Positions 8,189 through 32,804 of a stretch of DNA of 32,804 nt are shown piece by piece. Under the pieces are notes generated by a model, which saw only the letters and a program-made list of their open reading frames with translations, had not been told where the DNA came from and did no database searches. Origin of the DNA: a virus (lineage: Duplodnaviria > Caudoviricetes); IMG/VR virus record IMGVR_UViG_3300037483_000307, positions 1 to 32,804 of that record. One strand, written 5' to 3'. The position numbers and the translations under genes were made by a program. Each line of letters opens with the position of its first letter. Position 1 is the first letter of the stretch.

Positions 8189-8881
8189 TAAACATAATTT
8201 TGTTATGTTGTTGTTTTTTTTTGAGAAAATTTCATTTGATAGTTCAATTTGTCGGCTTTCGCAATATCTATGCGACTTGTATATGGAAGTATCAACTTCC
8301 ATAACTTTAAAATAACCCACATCGTGAGGTAAGACCGTTATCTTTTTGTTTTGATTTATTGCTTCTAAACCAAAAAGTACATCACTCATACATTTGTCGT
8401 TCGACTTCCAAATTTTTTTAGGATTAAAATATTCAGTTGAAAAAGCAGTTACGCCAGTTCCAGCAACATCAATTAATCTTTCTTCCGTTTGGTTGTTGGC
8501 ACAATGGAAAAATTTATGACCTCCATAGTAGCTGACATCTTTAGCCATGATAATTCTACCATGATGGGAAACTATTGTACTGTGTTCTTTTATTTTTGCC
8601 ACCATATCATTTGCATAATTTGGTGGATAAATAATATCATCATCTAACGTGAAATAATATTCAGGCTCTTTTATTTTTGAAAGGAAATAAAATTTGCCAT
8701 TATCGGTTAAATCAACACCATAAGCAATATGATATTTATCCATCCATCTAGGTATAGTTTCATAGCTATTAGCAAATATTCTTATTTCATCAAACTGATT
8801 TTTAATACTTGCCAACATTTTTTTTAAATGATTAATTCGGCAAGGCATAGTAGCAATGTTAGCTGTTCTTTTCATACACAT
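8186..8881 (-). CDS. glycosyltransferase (GT-A fold)
   Basis: ATMP.R..L..ML.SI..QFD N-terminus, DLTDNGKF, YYFTLDDDIIYPPNY (DxD), GTGV, MSD. Confidence 0.8.
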   Translation of the reverse strand: MCMKRTANIATMPCRINHLKKMLASIKNQFDEIRIFANSYETIPRWMDKYHIAYGVDLTDNGKFYFLSKIKEPEYYFTLDDDIIYPPNYANDMVAKIKEHSTIVSHHGRIIMAKDVSYYGGHKFFHCANNQTEERLIDVAGTGVTAFSTEYFNPKKIWKSNDKCMSDVLFGLEAINQNKKITVLPHDVGYFKVMEVDTSIYKSHRYCESRQIELSNEIFSKKNNNITKLCL

Positions 8882-9428
8882 AAAAATCTGAAAATGAACC
8901 TTGTTTATGGTTTAAACTTTTAAAAGGATTGATTTCTCGTTCGATTAACTTATAACCCACGATGTCCTTTGTGAAGTTGCGAGGGCGTACATGAGCTGCC
9001 ATGCCTTCCATTTCTTCGTTTGGTGAATAAACGATTAAATATTTCGCACCCAATCCAACCAAGTTAGCCATATAATCGTAGTAATCTATATCATTGACTA
9101 AATGGTAAATTACATCTAAACTTAAAATCAATTCAGGAGTTTCTTTTATATCTTTGAACTTGCTGAAAATTTCGCAGTTAACCTTTTGTTTGCATAGGCT
9201 TAAAGCCTTTTCAGATACATCGAACGCAAATATTTTTTCACACTCAATCATGGCTAATTGATTGCCATCGCCACAACCATATTCTAATAAAGAAGTGATG
9301 CCGTTGGTGTCAATAAAATTGTTAATAAACTCCGCCTTATAAGCAGCCAAAAACCCATAGCTACCGTTACCACTATTGCCACCGTTCATGTAACGGTCAT
9401 TCCAATATTTATTAGTGTCTAATTTCAT
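8859..9428 (-). CDS. class I SAM-dependent methyltransferase
   Basis: YW..RY..GGNSG.GS.G, LLEYGCGDGNQL (motif I), DVS, LSLDVIYHLV. Confidence 0.85.
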   Translation of the reverse strand: MKLDTNKYWNDRYMNGGNSGNGSYGFLAAYKAEFINNFIDTNGITSLLEYGCGDGNQLAMIECEKIFAFDVSEKALSLCKQKVNCEIFSKFKDIKETPELILSLDVIYHLVNDIDYYDYMANLVGLGAKYLIVYSPNEEMEGMAAHVRPRNFTKDIVGYKLIEREINPFKSLNHKQGSFSDFYVYEKNS

Positions 9429-10011
9429 TTCCTAAAAATTTTGATGTCATGTTAAAATCGTGAATTTTCAAATAAACGTAACCCTCGTTAATTGTGATAA
9501 CTTTACCAATATGTTTACCCATCATCCCATGAGGTCTGTCATGTACGCATTTCGTCTTTTCACCCCTTTGAACGAGAGCAAGAAACATAGACGTACAATG
9601 TTCGTTATAATCTCTTTCATGCCTGTAGTTAACGCCTTTGTATCTCTTTATTGGTTTGAAATTTATCAAAACATTTTCTTCTCTCTCAGCAATTTTTTTG
9701 ATAAATTCGATGAAAGTTGACACAACCTCATCGTCGCTATCTAACCGAATTTCAACATCGTATTTAAACTTTTCAATACCATCGAAATAGACGTTCAAAT
9801 CTCCAAAGTCTAAATTTTGAATCAACTCCAAATTTTCGGGATGTCCGATATTTCCTAAATGTTCTTTGCAAATTACGAAAATATCAAAATCTTTAAATGT
9901 TTGATTTTTTAATGATGCAATGAAATTATTTTGCATCAATTTCAATCTTGATTTGTCTAACTTTTCAGTATAGCAAAATCTTGTGAATACCGCTATTTTC
10001 ATCTGTACCAA
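9412..10011 (-). CDS. putative glycosyltransferase (rhamnosyltransferase-like, GT-A)
   Basis: VFTRF...R..L....ASL.NQT.KDF and RLDSDD motifs. Confidence 0.7.
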   Translation of the reverse strand: MVQMKIAVFTRFCYTEKLDKSRLKLMQNNFIASLKNQTFKDFDIFVICKEHLGNIGHPENLELIQNLDFGDLNVYFDGIEKFKYDVEIRLDSDDEVVSTFIEFIKKIAEREENVLINFKPIKRYKGVNYRHERDYNEHCTSMFLALVQRGEKTKCVHDRPHGMMGKHIGKVITINEGYVYLKIHDFNMTSKFLGNEIRH

Positions 10012-10622
10012 CTTCTGATTATTTCTATTTGATTTTTCCTTAAATTTTGATATTCTTTCGTGACAATGCCTATTGATTTTTGACCGCTATGTCTGCGATA
10101 GTAAGCAAGTGTTTCATCGACATACCTAAACTTCAAATGATTATATAAACACCTTAGATTAAATTCATACTCCTCCGCTGTCCACAAACTTTCATTAAAC
10201 AAACCCATCTTTTCAAACACTTCTTTTCGATACATCAATGTACCACCATGTACATAATTATTTACTATCATATTTCCAATATTCAAATATTTTTTCAAAG
10301 GTCTGTAAATTATCCCTTTTGAAACGATTTCTTTAAATACAATTGCGTTTCCGTGGATTACATCGGTAGCAGGAGTAAATGCCTTTACACTTTTTTCGAT
10401 TGAATCTTTTGGTAACATATCATCATCACACAAATATTTAATAAAATCGCCTGTACTTTTTTCAATTCCATTGTTAAAATTATGAGACATTGATTTGTGC
10501 GATTGCGAAATAATTAATTCTACATTGCTATACGTTTGATTTTCTACTGATTGGAGGGCTTCATTTAAAAATCCTCTGTCTTTGTTGAACGGGATGATGA
10601 TGCTTACTTTTGGTTTTTTCAT
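9999..10622 (-). CDS. family 2 glycosyltransferase
   Basis: PKVSIIIP, QTY.NVELI, N.GI..STGDFI.YL.DDD, GLFNESL..AEEYEF.LR, YYRRH. Confidence 0.9.
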   Translation of the reverse strand: MKKPKVSIIIPFNKDRGFLNEALQSVENQTYSNVELIISQSHKSMSHNFNNGIEKSTGDFIKYLCDDDMLPKDSIEKSVKAFTPATDVIHGNAIVFKEIVSKGIIYRPLKKYLNIGNMIVNNYVHGGTLMYRKEVFEKMGLFNESLWTAEEYEFNLRCLYNHLKFRYVDETLAYYRRHSGQKSIGIVTKEYQNLRKNQIEIIRSWYR

Positions 10623-28704: not shown

Positions 28705-29322
28705 TTAGTTTATTTTTAAAAATTCGTTATATTTTTCTTCTGTTTCAAAAGACCATCCTGAAAAGTATTCAGTCATATTGTAAGATTTGTAAGAGCTATC
28801 AAACCAACCGTATTTTCCATTCATTTCTTGTGCTGTTTTATAAAAAAATGAAGGTATTGTTGTTGTTCTTTCAATTTTTTTTGCATTGGTTTGTAAAAAA
28901 TCTAATTTTCTTACTTCTAAAATTTTCTTTTCATCGGCTGCATTTTTTGCAGCAATTTTTGAAAGGTTTAATTTTTCAAAATAATCATCCCAATTTGTAG
29001 CAGCATCAACAATTTCAGCAGCGTTTAAGAAATAAGTTTTCTTCATGCCGCCACCATAAGCCTTTGGAAGTAAACCTGCGTGATGCCACTCCATATTTGG
29101 CACGGCATACAATAAAGTCTCTTTTACTTCCTCAACTGTTAAGCCGGTTGCTTTTGCAAACATCTGATTTGCCTTTCCAAGCGTCAATTTACCATCATCA
29201 CATTTCGCATCTTCATGTCTGTTGCTGGCGAATTTACAATCACTTAAACCACCACCAATGTTGTAATTTTCTTTATATTTTTTCGAAGAATATTTTGCGA
29301 TTATTTTTTCTAATTTTTTCAT
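28705..29322 (-). CDS. hypothetical early protein
   Basis: 205 aa; S.R..DA..G, EWHHAG, TYF motifs. Confidence 0.65.
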   Translation of the reverse strand: MKKLEKIIAKYSSKKYKENYNIGGGLSDCKFASNRHEDAKCDDGKLTLGKANQMFAKATGLTVEEVKETLLYAVPNMEWHHAGLLPKAYGGGMKKTYFLNAAEIVDAATNWDDYFEKLNLSKIAAKNAADEKKILEVRKLDFLQTNAKKIERTTTIPSFFYKTAQEMNGKYGWFDSSYKSYNMTEYFSGWSFETEEKYNEFLKIN

Positions 29323-29775: not shown

Positions 29776-29923
29776 TAAAAGTAAGCAAACTATTTTAATA
29801 TATAACTATAAAACTACAATTATTTTTCAAAAAACGCTGTTTCTGAAAATGAGAGAGATTAATTTAAGACCTTAATTAATTATTAATATTATTTATTTGT
29901 TTGCTTATTTTTACTTATTTTTG
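29776..29923. promoter_or_regulatory. divergent promoter region
   Basis: AT-rich gap between divergent operons; minus-strand TACTTTTA (29776-29783) and plus-strand TTTG(29896)...TATTTTTG(29916-29923). Confidence 0.55.
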
Positions 29924-29949
29924 CTTAATTGTTTAATAAATAAAACAAT

Positions 29950-30237
29950 ATGAATACACCACAGACCCCCCAATTACCTAAACATAGTGTTACCGCAAGT
30001 GCTGTTATAGGCAGGTTTATTTGTTCATTTAAGGGTCATTTTCCTGAGAAATATTTAAACGAAAACGATGGGTGGATTTGCGCTACCAGATGTAAAAGGT
30101 GCCATAGCACTTTGATGGGTGGGTTTACTTGGAAGTTTAAACAAATTCCACCCCCAAATTCAAATGAACAGCAGATAAAAAAATGGGAAAAATATTGTGA
30201 AGATAAATGGCAGTCGCTTCGGGAAACTTGCTACTAA
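29950..30237 (+). CDS. hypothetical protein spanning a GTTA core (cassette-like)
   Basis: C...GH...C.RC Zn-type motif; Val14 is the GTT core at 29989; the stop is the TAA of TAAC at 30235. Confidence 0.65.
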   Translation: MNTPQTPQLPKHSVTASAVIGRFICSFKGHFPEKYLNENDGWICATRCKRCHSTLMGGFTWKFKQIPPPNSNEQQIKKWEKYCEDKWQSLRETCY

Positions 30238-30331
30238 CAGCCTGTGTTATGTTGGTGCGTAGGGTTTTCGAGCGAGGGGCAGTTAAATATTTTAAATTAA
30301 ATTTTTGCGAGGGATTATTAAAACTAAAAAA

Positions 30332-30709
30332 ATGAGAACAATTAAATTTAGGGCTTGGACCGGAAAGGAAATGAGATACGATGTAAACATAAACGATGGG
30401 AAGCCTGTTAGAAAAGGGTACCAATGGTTTAATGAGGAAAATGATGTTCACGATTCAAGCCCATTGCAATATATAGGCTTTAGCGATAAAAGCAATAAAG
30501 AAATATACGAGGGCGATATTGTGGAAATAATACATCCTTGCTGGTCTGCAATTTGTGAAACGAAATTTATAGATGGTGCTTTTTGGTTTATTGAAAAAAA
30601 TAAACCTGAGAACAACTCACAAGTTAGATCAGATAAGTTTTTAAACCAAAAATGGGATATAAAAATAATTGGAAATATTTATGAAACTTCACATCGTAAA
30701 TTAATATGA
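30332..30709 (+). CDS. YopX-family protein
   Basis: MRTIKFRAW, LQYIG..DK...EIYEGDIV, IIGNIYE. Confidence 0.88.
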   Translation: MRTIKFRAWTGKEMRYDVNINDGKPVRKGYQWFNEENDVHDSSPLQYIGFSDKSNKEIYEGDIVEIIHPCWSAICETKFIDGAFWFIEKNKPENNSQVRSDKFLNQKWDIKIIGNIYETSHRKLI

Positions 30710-30960
30710 AAAAAAAAGAAGATTATTTAAACGATTTAGCAAAATTAGCATTTAAAATAGATGATGTTTTGCAAAAGCAACAAGAGCGTTCAGAAAGATT
30801 AGTGCAAATGGCTAGACTTGCAACCCAAGGATTAAAGGAAAGTCCTGAATTTAAAAAATTAGAGCAAGAATTTAAACATCCGCAATTTACAGGTCCAAGC
30901 GAGGAAATGCACGACTTGAGAGTTATAGTTAAGAGATTGCGGAAGTATAAGTTTTTATAA
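30706..30960 (+). CDS. hypothetical protein
   Basis: 84-aa helical ORF overlapping the YopX stop. Confidence 0.6.
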   Translation: MKKKEDYLNDLAKLAFKIDDVLQKQQERSERLVQMARLATQGLKESPEFKKLEQEFKHPQFTGPSEEMHDLRVIVKRLRKYKFL

Positions 30961-31044
30961 AACGCGAGTAAATGTAGCAACTTGTAAACGACCCCCAATT
31001 TGCTATATAAAATGTTAGGGATTGTCATTTAATACTATAAAAAT

Positions 31045-31296
31045 ATGTTTACACTTGAATTAGGGCAAATCGCCAAAGACAAATTAACAGGATTTAAAGG
31101 CATCTTAACCGCAAGGTGTGAGTTTTTAACTGGTTGCAACAGATATTGCATTCAACCGCAGCAATTAAAAGACGGTAAGCCAATTGATAGCATTTATTTT
31201 GACGAAGCTCAAATCGAAATCATCAACGAAGGTATTTCCGAAAAAGATGTACAAGGAGAGAAAAAAGGAGCGTGTTCACCTTGCCCATCGAAATAG
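31045..31296 (+). CDS. phage hypothetical protein
   Basis: LG...KD..TGFKG...AR.EFLTGC..Y...P.....FDE pattern. Confidence 0.7.
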   Translation: MFTLELGQIAKDKLTGFKGILTARCEFLTGCNRYCIQPQQLKDGKPIDSIYFDEAQIEIINEGISEKDVQGEKKGACSPCPSK

Positions 31297-31409
31297 TATC
31301 AACGGGGCTGTTATTAGAACTACAAAATATCAATTAACCACTGCACCCGCAATTTCTTGTAAGCATTTGTTATGCTCTCGTTTTGCGTGTGTGGGCAAAT
31401 CAAACTAAA

Positions 31410-31628
31410 ATGGAAATTAAATACACGAATGACAAAAAAGGTAAGGCACAGAGCTGGGACGCCACAAGTTCATTAACAGAGGGAAATAGTTGGACTAATT
31501 TTGAAGTGCATTTAGAGGGTAGTGCAGTAAATGAATGGTCGGCAAAAATGAACTTGGTAGAAGCTGCTGAAAAACTAATTGGTCACTTGCAGACGTTGTG
31601 CGAGGAGGCAAAGCAAAATGGTGCATAA
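31410..31628 (+). CDS. hypothetical protein in module 31369-31629
   Basis: ATG after an A-rich tract; the stop is the TAA of the TAAC core. Confidence 0.6.
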   Translation: MEIKYTNDKKGKAQSWDATSSLTEGNSWTNFEVHLEGSAVNEWSAKMNLVEAAEKLIGHLQTLCEEAKQNGA

Positions 31629-31637
31629 CGTTGAATT

Positions 31638-31727
31638 ATGAACGAACCAGGAAGCAAAATATACACAAACCTATATTTAGAAGATTTACCAAATGAAAAA
31701 TGGGTAGACACTTTTGGTTATGATTAA
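31638..31727 (+). pseudogene. truncated NUMOD4 (HNH homing endonuclease N-terminus) remnant
   Basis: MNEPGSKIYTNLYLEDLPNEKWVDTFGYD* matches the start of NUMOD4 (E.W..I.GY.G.Y.VSN.GRV) and then stops. Confidence 0.55.
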
Positions 31728-31830
31728 AAAACCAAAGCAAAATATATTAGTAAGTTTTTACCTAATTGGTGAGGTACGAGCGTTGGCAAAAAAATATTTT
31801 AATTATGGGTAAACAAGCACAAACGATTGA

Positions 31831-31870
31831 ATTAACGGATTAAAACTATAAAAATGGATATTGAAACACA
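31831..31870 (+). repeat. 40-bp perfect direct repeat, copy 1
   Basis: attaacggattaaaactataaaaatggatattgaaacaca. Confidence 0.95.
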
Positions 31871-32126
31871 ACTCATGAATGAACTTGCAGAAAATGGCAC
31901 AGAGCTGGGAAGAAAATTATTTCTAAAATGGCAAGAAGAACGAATAAAAACAAAAGAAAGGTTAATAGGAAAACTAAAGGCTGTTAATAATAATTGCGAT
32001 TTAGCCGATGTTAGCGGTTCGTTAGAAGCCGCATCAAGGCAATATCAAAAAGGGTTTAAACAGGCTTTAAAAGACATAAAGACTTACGGATTGGAACAGG
32101 TTTTAGCGTCTTACAATGACTGCTAA
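31854..32126 (+). CDS. hypothetical protein reading through the GTTA core at 32010
   Basis: ...CDLAD|VSGSL...; the stop is the TAA of TAAC at 32124. Confidence 0.65.
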   Translation: MDIETQLMNELAENGTELGRKLFLKWQEERIKTKERLIGKLKAVNNNCDLADVSGSLEAASRQYQKGFKQALKDIKTYGLEQVLASYNDC

Positions 32127-32252
32127 CGGCATTGGGCTAAACGCAGTAGGGGTTTCCTACCTGTAAAGATGGAATGGCAGACAATTTAAGTTTAACTTTG
32201 TTCTTGATTGTTTGGACGACATCCCCCTATTGCGTTTTAGCCCATGTTATGG
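32121..32252 (+). repeat. complete attC-like imperfect inverted repeat
   Basis: TAACggcatTGGGCTAAACGCAGTAGGGG ... CCCCTATTGCGTTTTAGCCCAtGTTA. Confidence 0.8.
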
Positions 32253-32375
32253 GATAGGTGGGGCATAGGTGAATTTGGTTGAAAGCGGAAACGCTGGATG
32301 TACTTCTGACACCGAAGAAGCCGAAAGCTTTGCGCCCCACTTTACCATAACGTTTTGCAGCTAAACGAAGTTATT

Positions 32376-32415
32376 ATTAACGGATTAAAACTATAAAAAT
32401 GGATATTGAAACACA
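32376..32415 (+). repeat. 40-bp perfect direct repeat, copy 2 (start codon followed by an early stop)
   Basis: Identical to 31831-31870; abuts the spanin stop at 32417. Confidence 0.95.
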
Positions 32416-32416
32416 T

Positions 32417-32804
32417 TTAAAATAAACTACGAATTATGGCCCCAACCCCAACTCCAACGAAAAAACTTTTGATTTTTCTTTTCTTTTGTTTCTTTATTTC
32501 CTGGTCTTTTTCGGAAACAATAACCTCATAATTGTCTATTACCGTGTCTTTTATATTGTTTTGATTTTCCAAATTAACGATAATTTCATTTTTTACGGAC
32601 AGATTTTGTCCGCAAATGGAATCGGTTGAATCTTGAATTGCTATTAATGAATCTACGAATTTTTTGGGTAAACATTCTATTGTGTCATTTAAAACCGTAT
32701 CAAAGACGGTCAAATACTTTGTTTTTATCATAACTCGTACGCTATCTTTTCGATTTAACACTTTTTTGTAGTCTTCGTTTAAAGAATCGTTTAAACCGCT
32801 TAAA
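32417..32804 (-). CDS. 3' part of putative spanin (joined to 122..1)
   Basis: Frame open to the window end; coiled-coil region, then KKRKIK plus a hydrophobic C-terminus SFFVGVGVGAIIRSLF. Confidence 0.75.
   Translation of the reverse strand, partial: LSGLNDSLNEDYKKVLNRKDSVRVMIKTKYLTVFDTVLNDTIECLPKKFVDSLIAIQDSTDSICGQNLSVKNEIIVNLENQNNIKDTVIDNYEVIVSEKDQEIKKQKKRKIKSFFVGVGVGAIIRSLF

Follow-up and report, generated by a model that had tools for sequence, protein, structure and literature searches.

A phage gene-cassette array in advanced decay, probably from a variant integron system shared by Bacteroidota and their phages

In classical integrons, the recombined strand of an attC site is cut in its AAC and is the strand richer in G:T pairs (PMC5027507). 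Bacteroidota are listed among the integron-bearing phyla (PMC8618304), and the IntegronFinder 2.0 article names one complete integron in Bacteroidetes proper (PMC9024848). In phages, Qi et al. (2023) reported 17 clusters of attC sites lacking integron-integrases (CALINs), including one in Polaribacter phage P12002L, in which two sites were called and termed divergent (PMC9892861). P12002L attC1, alone among six sites, was not recombined by IntI1; attC2 was recombined, and a site of the type described here was detected by HattCI only (PMC9892861).

Here we describe an array in the window, by which we mean the whole 32,804-nucleotide (nt) stretch analysed (IMG/VR record IMGVR_UViG_3300037483_000307). 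Positions 29950–32415 form a + strand island of small open reading frames (ORFs), and the − strand carries nearly all other genes. GTTA and TAAC cores, all located where an earlier, sequence-only reading had placed them, divide the island into modules (GTTA…TAAC) and whole or broken sites (TAAC…GTTA); three ORFs (29950–30237, 31383/31410–31628 and 31854–32126) stop on a core TAA, also as that reading had noted. We regard the island as probably the remains, much of it decayed, of a cassette array belonging to a variant integron system of Bacteroidota and their phages, working by the mechanism proposed below. The phage setting had been thought unusual; the array does lie in a phage, but integrase-less phage arrays had been published, one of them of this family (PMC9892861).

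Pairing of module ends

A single site seed pattern yielded at least 127 viral loci and at least 139 genome stretches, on which all family counts given here rest; 73 of the 79 genome loci listed carry a Bacteroidota organism in the title. Locus L285 is a spurious match. With a site parser we recovered at least 362 sites in 131 phage loci and at least 211 sites in 138 host loci, and in the first 30 phage loci 112 sites were in frame and 7 reversed. Site stems were selected for pairing, so their pairing is circular as evidence; that of the module ends is not, because these ends lie outside the search pattern.

Across 187 distinct phage modules, pairing of the ends extends over 11 nt past GTTA and TAAC (identity 0.60–0.91) and no further (0.20–0.33), with a G·T pair at position 7 in 81% of the modules. 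Scores of 6 or more are reached by 81% of cognate and 2.8% of non-cognate end pairs. Of 270 distinct ends, 254 have T at 7 nt ahead of the core; the 5′ ends have G at position 7 in 225 of 274 cases and at position 8 in 46 of the remaining 49. The proposal of an integron-like phage array with module-specific pairing far beyond the 7-base-pair (bp) core is supported. The single bulged base, which the sequence-only reading gave for all four modules, is present in modules 2–4 of the window. These have the position-8 form, a minority (46 of 274 5′ ends); most of the family shows 11 pairs without a gap, the seventh of them G·T. Arms facing each other across a site pair at the random level (4.21 versus 4.22). 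Because these flanking arms do not match in a linear array, excision should be disfavoured.

Exchange at the cores

Gene content in related phages changes at the cores, as had been predicted. The phages of loci L005 and L006 have recombinases that are 99.6% identical in amino acids, share the upstream DNA and carry different arrays; their identity starts at the CTAAC beside the recombinase and stops at a CAACG on the far side. Among 105 site pairs of at least 85% identity, which are non-independent, the downstream flank alone is kept in 11, the upstream flank alone in 0, both in 1 and neither in 93. In the 32 pairs of at least 93% identity, the sequence upstream of TAAC is random right up to TAAC, whereas over the 12 nt after GTTA identity is 0.56–0.81 against 0.26–0.69 at random. 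Module B of the window (31014–31308) has three different neighbours past its TAAC in L274–L276. The 11-to-0 asymmetry and the downstream identity point to a mobile unit that would consist of a site plus its downstream module, with the main crossover, as we infer, at TAA|C on the gene (+) strand, in place of the G|TT breakpoint suggested earlier.

Exchange at GTTA occurs as well, less often. The 126-nt site of the window (32124–32249) is 98.4% identical to a site in L003 that has different modules on either side, and the site upstream of module B differs between L274 and L275 (module 93% identical, site 63%). Two contigs of run X4 match 29950–29992 and then enter another module, and L284 joins the head of ORF 31854–32126 to another body after GTTA.

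Gene orientation and the recombinase of relatives

The longest ORF lies on the TAAC…GTTA strand in 179 of 187 phage modules, and 70 of these 179 begin within the upstream site. In hosts, by contrast, 66 of 68 module genes lie on the opposite strand (2 of 68 on the TAAC…GTTA strand). To the right of the last TAAC, 6 phage contigs encode a tyrosine recombinase on the same strand and 5 host contigs encode one on the opposite strand. The host recombinases (L136, L162, L179, L199 and L208) point to the array and those of phages point away; in both, the recombinase is on the strand of the cassette genes. Relatives thus have a fixed TAAC end beside the recombinase, the equivalent of attI. Five phage ends near the recombinase have a common non-hairpin motif, TAAC-N3-TATAT-like, and neither this motif nor an attI-like end of the recombinase-bearing phages is present in the window.

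The 277-residue recombinase of L003 scores 156.9 bits against a cut-off of 265 for TIGR02249, in a match split into two pieces. Its best matches among solved structures are XerA and XerD, aligned without a long gap, and it falls under the NCBIfam cut-offs for XerA, XerC and XerD. The spacing between the catalytic lysine and histidine is 59–67 residues in 8 of 10 recombinases (L011 and L208 left out) and 107, counted by hand, in VchIntIA; the alignment of the family recombinase to VchIntIA splits at the position of the IntI insertion. The recombinase linked to family arrays lacks this insertion and is not IntI, where the sequence-only reading had expected an IntI-like enzyme. A search of genome contigs by short words found no relatives of the L003 recombinase; the host relatives came through the site pattern. 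As that reading had reported, the window itself shows no tyrosine recombinase among its 43 ORFs, and PF00589 finds none across the whole record (control positive in 14 of 14 genomes).

A G·T pair adjoins the core in 227 of the 236 sites that do not match the seed pattern, and a one-sided bulge of 4 nt is present in 387 of 476 sites (parser range 3–5). Because these G·T pairs form on the + strand, the rule for classical attC sites (PMC5027507) suggests by analogy that the + strand corresponds to the bottom strand of attC and would be the one to recombine. Among 469 sites, with those too short counted separately, an extra base is in the right arm in 90, in the left arm in 61 and absent in 318.

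Anatomy of the array

Position profiles were built for the left and right ends of sites and scanned on both strands of the window. At a score of 8 or more they gave left ends at 32124 and 32348, array right ends at 29989, 31014 and 32010, and two right-end matches outside the array, with about one per strand in shuffled sequence; the right ends at 31369 and 32246 score 7.0 and 7.1, below this threshold. The features are as follows.

29916–29923, + strand: promoter-like word, possibly a weak Bacteroidota −7 word; one of 38 such words on the + strand
29933–29992, + strand: site loop and right arm, left arm absent; ends in GTTA (29989–29992) and holds the start codon of ORF1
29950–30237, + strand: ORF1, 95 amino acids; begins in the site loop, crosses GTTA and stops on a core TAA
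29989–30238, + strand: module 1, with two 5′ ends (GTTA at 29989 and 30004), of which 30004 suits the 3′ end better
30235–30249, + strand: collapsed site, in which TAAC runs straight into the final 7 nt of a right arm and GTTA
30246–30960, + strand: module A, with an L038-like leader, a YopX ORF (30332–30709, PF09643) and ORF 30706–30960; matching 3′ end absent
30971–31017, + strand: site loop and right arm, TAAC and left arm deleted; called a hairpin in the sequence-only reading
31014–31308, + strand: module B, with ORF 31045–31296 (83 amino acids, phrog_16275); 3′ end deleted near 31308
31310–31372, + strand: site loop and right arm, left arm absent; 77–80% identical to site loops in L077 and L101, profile score 7.0
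31369–31629, + strand: module 2, with ORF 31410–31628 (72 amino acids); ends pair with one extra base
31626–31830, + strand: core TAAC and debris, left arm unrecognisable (left-end profile score 1.3)
31831–32013, + strand: site X, left arm missing; ORF 31854–32126 begins in its long coding loop; right arm 31986–32013, profile score 12.8
32010–32127, + strand: module 3, holding the C-terminal part of ORF 31854–32126
32124–32249, + strand: the sole whole site, a 126-nt TAAC…GTTA hairpin
32246–32351, + strand: module 4, 106 nt, no ORF of its own above 33 amino acids, extended stem, folding z-score −3.2
32348–32415, + strand: left arm of site X (32348–32381, profile score 29.4) and truncated end of the array, with the second copy of a 40-bp repeat (32376–32415)

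Against 20,000 non-cognate end pairs of the family, the ends of modules 2 and 4 each pair at 9 of 10 positions (P = 0.005) and those of module 3 at 7 of 10 (P = 0.076). Module 1 reaches 3 of 10 from 29989 (P = 0.87) and 7 of 10 from the second GTTA at 30004 (P = 0.076); it is probably composite. With module 1 taken from 30004, the 5′ end of the same module is the best partner for all four 3′ ends. The anchored scores of modules 2–4 (7.3, 6.6 and 8.7) are matched by 0.2%, 0.4% and 0.1% of 920 other GTTA/TAAC pairs in the window. Complementary ends, proposed for all four modules, are thus clear in modules 2 and 4, which exceed the non-cognate control for chance, and weak in module 3, but are not found in module 1 as drawn from 29989, which does not exceed it.

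Of the three AAC…GTT hairpins claimed between modules, one is a whole site. This site, at 32124–32249, folds with a z-score of −4.15, reached in 0 of 200 shuffles, and has a G·T pair adjoining the core, a 4-nt bulge on the left arm and one extra base on the right arm. The site at 30235–30249 is collapsed, as described; the end of its right arm and the leader that follows match L038, where the site is whole. The third, 30961–31017, fails as a site (z-score −1.7, left-end profile −28 to −16) and is instead the loop and right arm of a site of the L275 type, with 30971–31017 94% identical to the final 47 nt of a whole site in L275. The promoter claimed at 29916–29923 has nothing behind it beyond a common motif; TAnnTTTG is what we take to be the consensus of the Bacteroidota −7 word.

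Other parts can be traced to relatives in which they are intact. The segment 29933–29992 is 79% identical to a site in L013 (right-end profile score 12.7), and no viral relative of ORF1 was found. Module B is an intact cassette in L274, L275 and L276, and 30971–31308 is 90% identical to L275. The left arm of site X pairs with the right arm at 31983–32013 (−14.3 kcal/mol) and matches a whole site in L004. Relatives of ORF 31410–31628 in L001 and L002 sit outside arrays, and the gene is also found without sites. Within the debris, a short word at 31765–31785 also occurs in the loop of a P12002L site and suggests another destroyed site, and a 29-residue ORF (31638–31727) presumably resembles the start of a NUMOD4/HNH protein; Pfam gave nothing for it.

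The 40-bp repeat (31831–31870 and 32376–32415) has a spacing of 545 bp, equal to site X, module 3, the 126-nt site and module 4 together. Integration of a two-cassette circle, or duplication of a cassette followed by deletions that trimmed it, would account for this spacing; the spacing is silent on the crossover core and we do not use it as support. ORF-less modules of about 110 nt with a longer, GC-rich stem occur in the window (32246–32351), L003 (3123–3234) and L093, and could be empty frames or small RNAs. The motif GCG[ATG][AGT]GG lies at 30257, 30272, 30307 and 31780 of the window; in phage modules it occurs 50 times on the + strand and 5 times on the − strand (92.8 kb), often flanking the ORF in leader and trailer (L003 and L038).

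Decay of this copy

The array is largely decayed: deletions took or broke the TAAC side of most junctions, and with the crossover side gone the genes are therefore fixed in place. One whole site is left beside half sites, short of the cluster of at least two sites that defines an integron or CALIN, a number that relatives have. Contigs from other runs bridge the junctions near 30960 (X4) and 31308 (X2) and the array's right-hand end (X3), which rules out assembly artefacts at these three points; no listed contig piece spans the junction at 30235–30249. No joint at a core appears in the contigs of four runs, which is no evidence against excision because contigs drop rare variants. The shuffling platform served in trans, as the sequence-only reading had it, gives way to a mostly broken array in which 32124–32249 alone could still be a substrate for a recombinase in trans. 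The value of the window is as a record of how arrays become fixed through deletions of the crossover core.

Proposed mechanism and its alternatives

In the mechanism that we propose, arrays would alternate hairpin sites (TAAC…GTTA) with modules (GTTA…TAAC), and a cassette would be a site plus its downstream module. A single-stranded cassette circle would fold in the cell into a dumbbell, with the 4-bp core at its centre, the site stem to one side of it and, to the opposite side, the 11-bp module arm with its G·T pair. The enzyme would most likely be a Xer-like tyrosine recombinase that lacks the IntI insertion; it would cut the folded + strand at TAA|C and insert the cassette at the fixed TAAC beside its own gene, the attI equivalent, or at the TAAC of another site. 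Phage genes would lie on the recombined + strand, opposite to host and classical cassettes, and sites and modules would also be re-paired at GTTA, less often. The phage of the window, which carries neither a recombinase nor an attI-like end, would have taken its array from this pool of Bacteroidota and their phages, and deletions would then have fixed its genes.

Several observations weigh against this proposal. A single crossover core cannot explain everything, because in 93 of 105 site pairs neither flank is shared, and the sites upstream of module B differ. No excised circle was seen in contigs, all loci stem from one seed pattern, and module 1 fits the pairing rule poorly. The extra base on the right arm, present in both of the window's sites, is not general (90 of 469).

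Some of these points would suit two independent mobile units, a site hairpin and a module hairpin, each recombining at both cores at similar rates: the 93 pairs that differ on both sides, the 126-nt site 98% identical between different modules, and module 4, which folds well by itself. We hold such a system to be highly improbable given the retention of 11 downstream and 0 upstream flanks, and the identity that persists after GTTA (0.56–0.81 versus 0.26–0.69 at random) and is absent before TAAC. The same asymmetry bears on a classical CALIN, in which a cassette would be a module plus its downstream site, exchanged at G|TT on the gene strand by a host IntI. Cores, hairpins and stop codons on the core do have a classical look, GTTA exchanges occur and phage CALINs have been published (PMC9892861). 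Yet the upstream flank alone is kept in 0 of 105 site pairs, the fixed array end is TAAC, 70 of 179 ORFs begin within the upstream site, the linked recombinase lacks the IntI insertion, and the family-type P12002L attC1 is the one of six sites that IntI1 did not recombine; this makes the classical reading very unlikely and largely refutes it.

Hairpins might instead act in RNA, as terminators, processing sites or translation heads, within a mosaic made by homologous or illegitimate recombination and no dedicated recombinase. Ribosome-binding leaders and start codons are present in many sites, the phage genome encodes a RecE-like exonuclease, and the junctions in the window are deletions at short matches. 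We nevertheless consider this unlikely: identity falls to random one base before TAAC, the recombinase lies at the same end in 11 contigs, and the same arms are retained in host modules even though their genes face the opposite way in 66 of 68, a pattern that a role in RNA leaves unexplained. Chance matches in AT-rich sequence do describe module 1 drawn from 29989 and the 30961–31017 ‘hairpin’, both at chance level, but for the array as a whole they are refuted, with a negligible probability left to them, by the end pairing, the hairpin z-score, the profile scores, the pieces that are intact in relatives and the breakpoints at cores.

Reused frames and cargo

In this family, frames are reused around unrelated cargo. 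Among 260 modules (192 phage and 68 host), 17 pairs match over at least 11 nt at both ends, and in all 17 the cargo shows no likeness by tblastx; the upstream sites are also 79–98% identical in 7 of the 17. L006 and L017 have a common 5′ end through the ATG and a common 3′ end from the TAA, and in three phage–host pairs the ORFs are oppositely oriented. Among 151 well-paired phage modules with an ORF, 34 ORFs stop on the core and 72 stop 11–14 nt short of the module end, where the arm has its outer edge. In module A, an L038 leader (88% identity over 30239–30313) precedes YopX instead of the unrelated ORF of L038, which by eye is DNA-methyltransferase-like; the ORF of module B occupies another frame in L277–L279.

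Such a reusable frame would comprise the 3′ arm, TAAC, the site, GTTA, and the 5′ arm with its leader, elements that would be continuous in a circular cassette. Tentatively, and with the balance still against it, we suggest that new cassettes arise when a foreign ORF, taken from near its start codon up to its stop codon and facing either way, is fitted into such a frame, and that a second exchange at GTTA swaps the heads and bodies of proteins; these loci would then show how cassettes come into being, under a recombinase that acts on folded DNA although it has no IntI insertion. Two points tell against ORF capture: the 260 modules have 237 different 5′ arms, and pairs with unlike sites may be convergent; and junctions could also come to lie at gene ends if ordinary recombination in A/T-rich leaders were followed by selection for intact genes. 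To our knowledge, the origin of integron cassettes is an open question, and one frame around unrelated, tightly fitted ORFs makes it testable by comparison and experiment.

Genome context

The record is linear and 98% complete by CheckV. The sequence-only reading called the genome apparently complete; there is no terminal repeat. An ORF at 32417–32803 extends past the right end, and with no terminal repeat a short piece of the genome is probably absent from the record. The window encodes a terminase, portal, tape measure, helicase, BT4734-type primase and the RecE-like exonuclease; at 8862–10622 (− strand), a methyltransferase and two glycosyltransferase-like genes lie within the structural gene block, possibly for virion modification. 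Rfam gave 0 matches on the window, the sole match to INPHARED phages was a 58-nt YopX stretch, and no close relative of the phage backbone was found through the right-flank gene. Pfam, with E up to 1, gave nothing above cut-off for seven ORFs, six of the array and one of its flank.

Comparison with known systems

The closest published array is the P12002L CALIN, likewise an integrase-less site cluster in a Bacteroidota phage, whose attC1 has the family shape. By our profiles the gene strand of P12002L carries 7 left ends and 8 array-like right ends, and on sequence grounds the CALIN is a member of this family. Positions 29000–41000 of P12002L (L135) hold more family sites than the published two, with a second cluster near 38000–40800. 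By our own reading, attC2 is the terminal TAAC of the array read in reverse, in agreement with a TAA|C cut on the gene strand. What differs here is the 11-nt module arms, the reversed genes and the family recombinase, which the accessible text of PMC9892861 does not describe; a literature search, with most subscription journals outside its reach, found no account of them. The family suggests that Bacteroidota hosts and their phages draw on a large integron-like gene pool, of which standard detection seems to catch only part.

The recombinase most resembles XerA and XerD, in its best structure matches and in a lysine-to-histidine distance of 59–67 residues in 8 of 10, but it falls under their family cut-offs and is linked to hairpin arrays instead of a dif site. 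It lacks the feature that is thought to enable IntI to act on folded DNA.

With classical integrons the arrays share an AAC/GTT core that closes a predicted folded site with a G·T bias on one strand and a variable loop, tightly fitted ORFs, gene content that changes exactly at the core, and a fixed insertion end beside a tyrosine recombinase. In contrast to them, pairing beyond the core extends over 11 nt with a fixed G·T, against about 3–4 nt, and the bulge is one-sided where classical sites have a two-sided central spacer. The recombinase is without the IntI insertion and in hosts points to the array; phage genes are reversed and often start in the site. Neither classical attC geometry, an IntI with its insertion, a classical attI nor genes opposite the recombined strand, as we infer that strand, are found. 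Because integrase, spacer geometry and gene orientation all depart from the classical pattern, the array, as judged from its sequence, functions like an integron cassette array yet stands outside the classical family.

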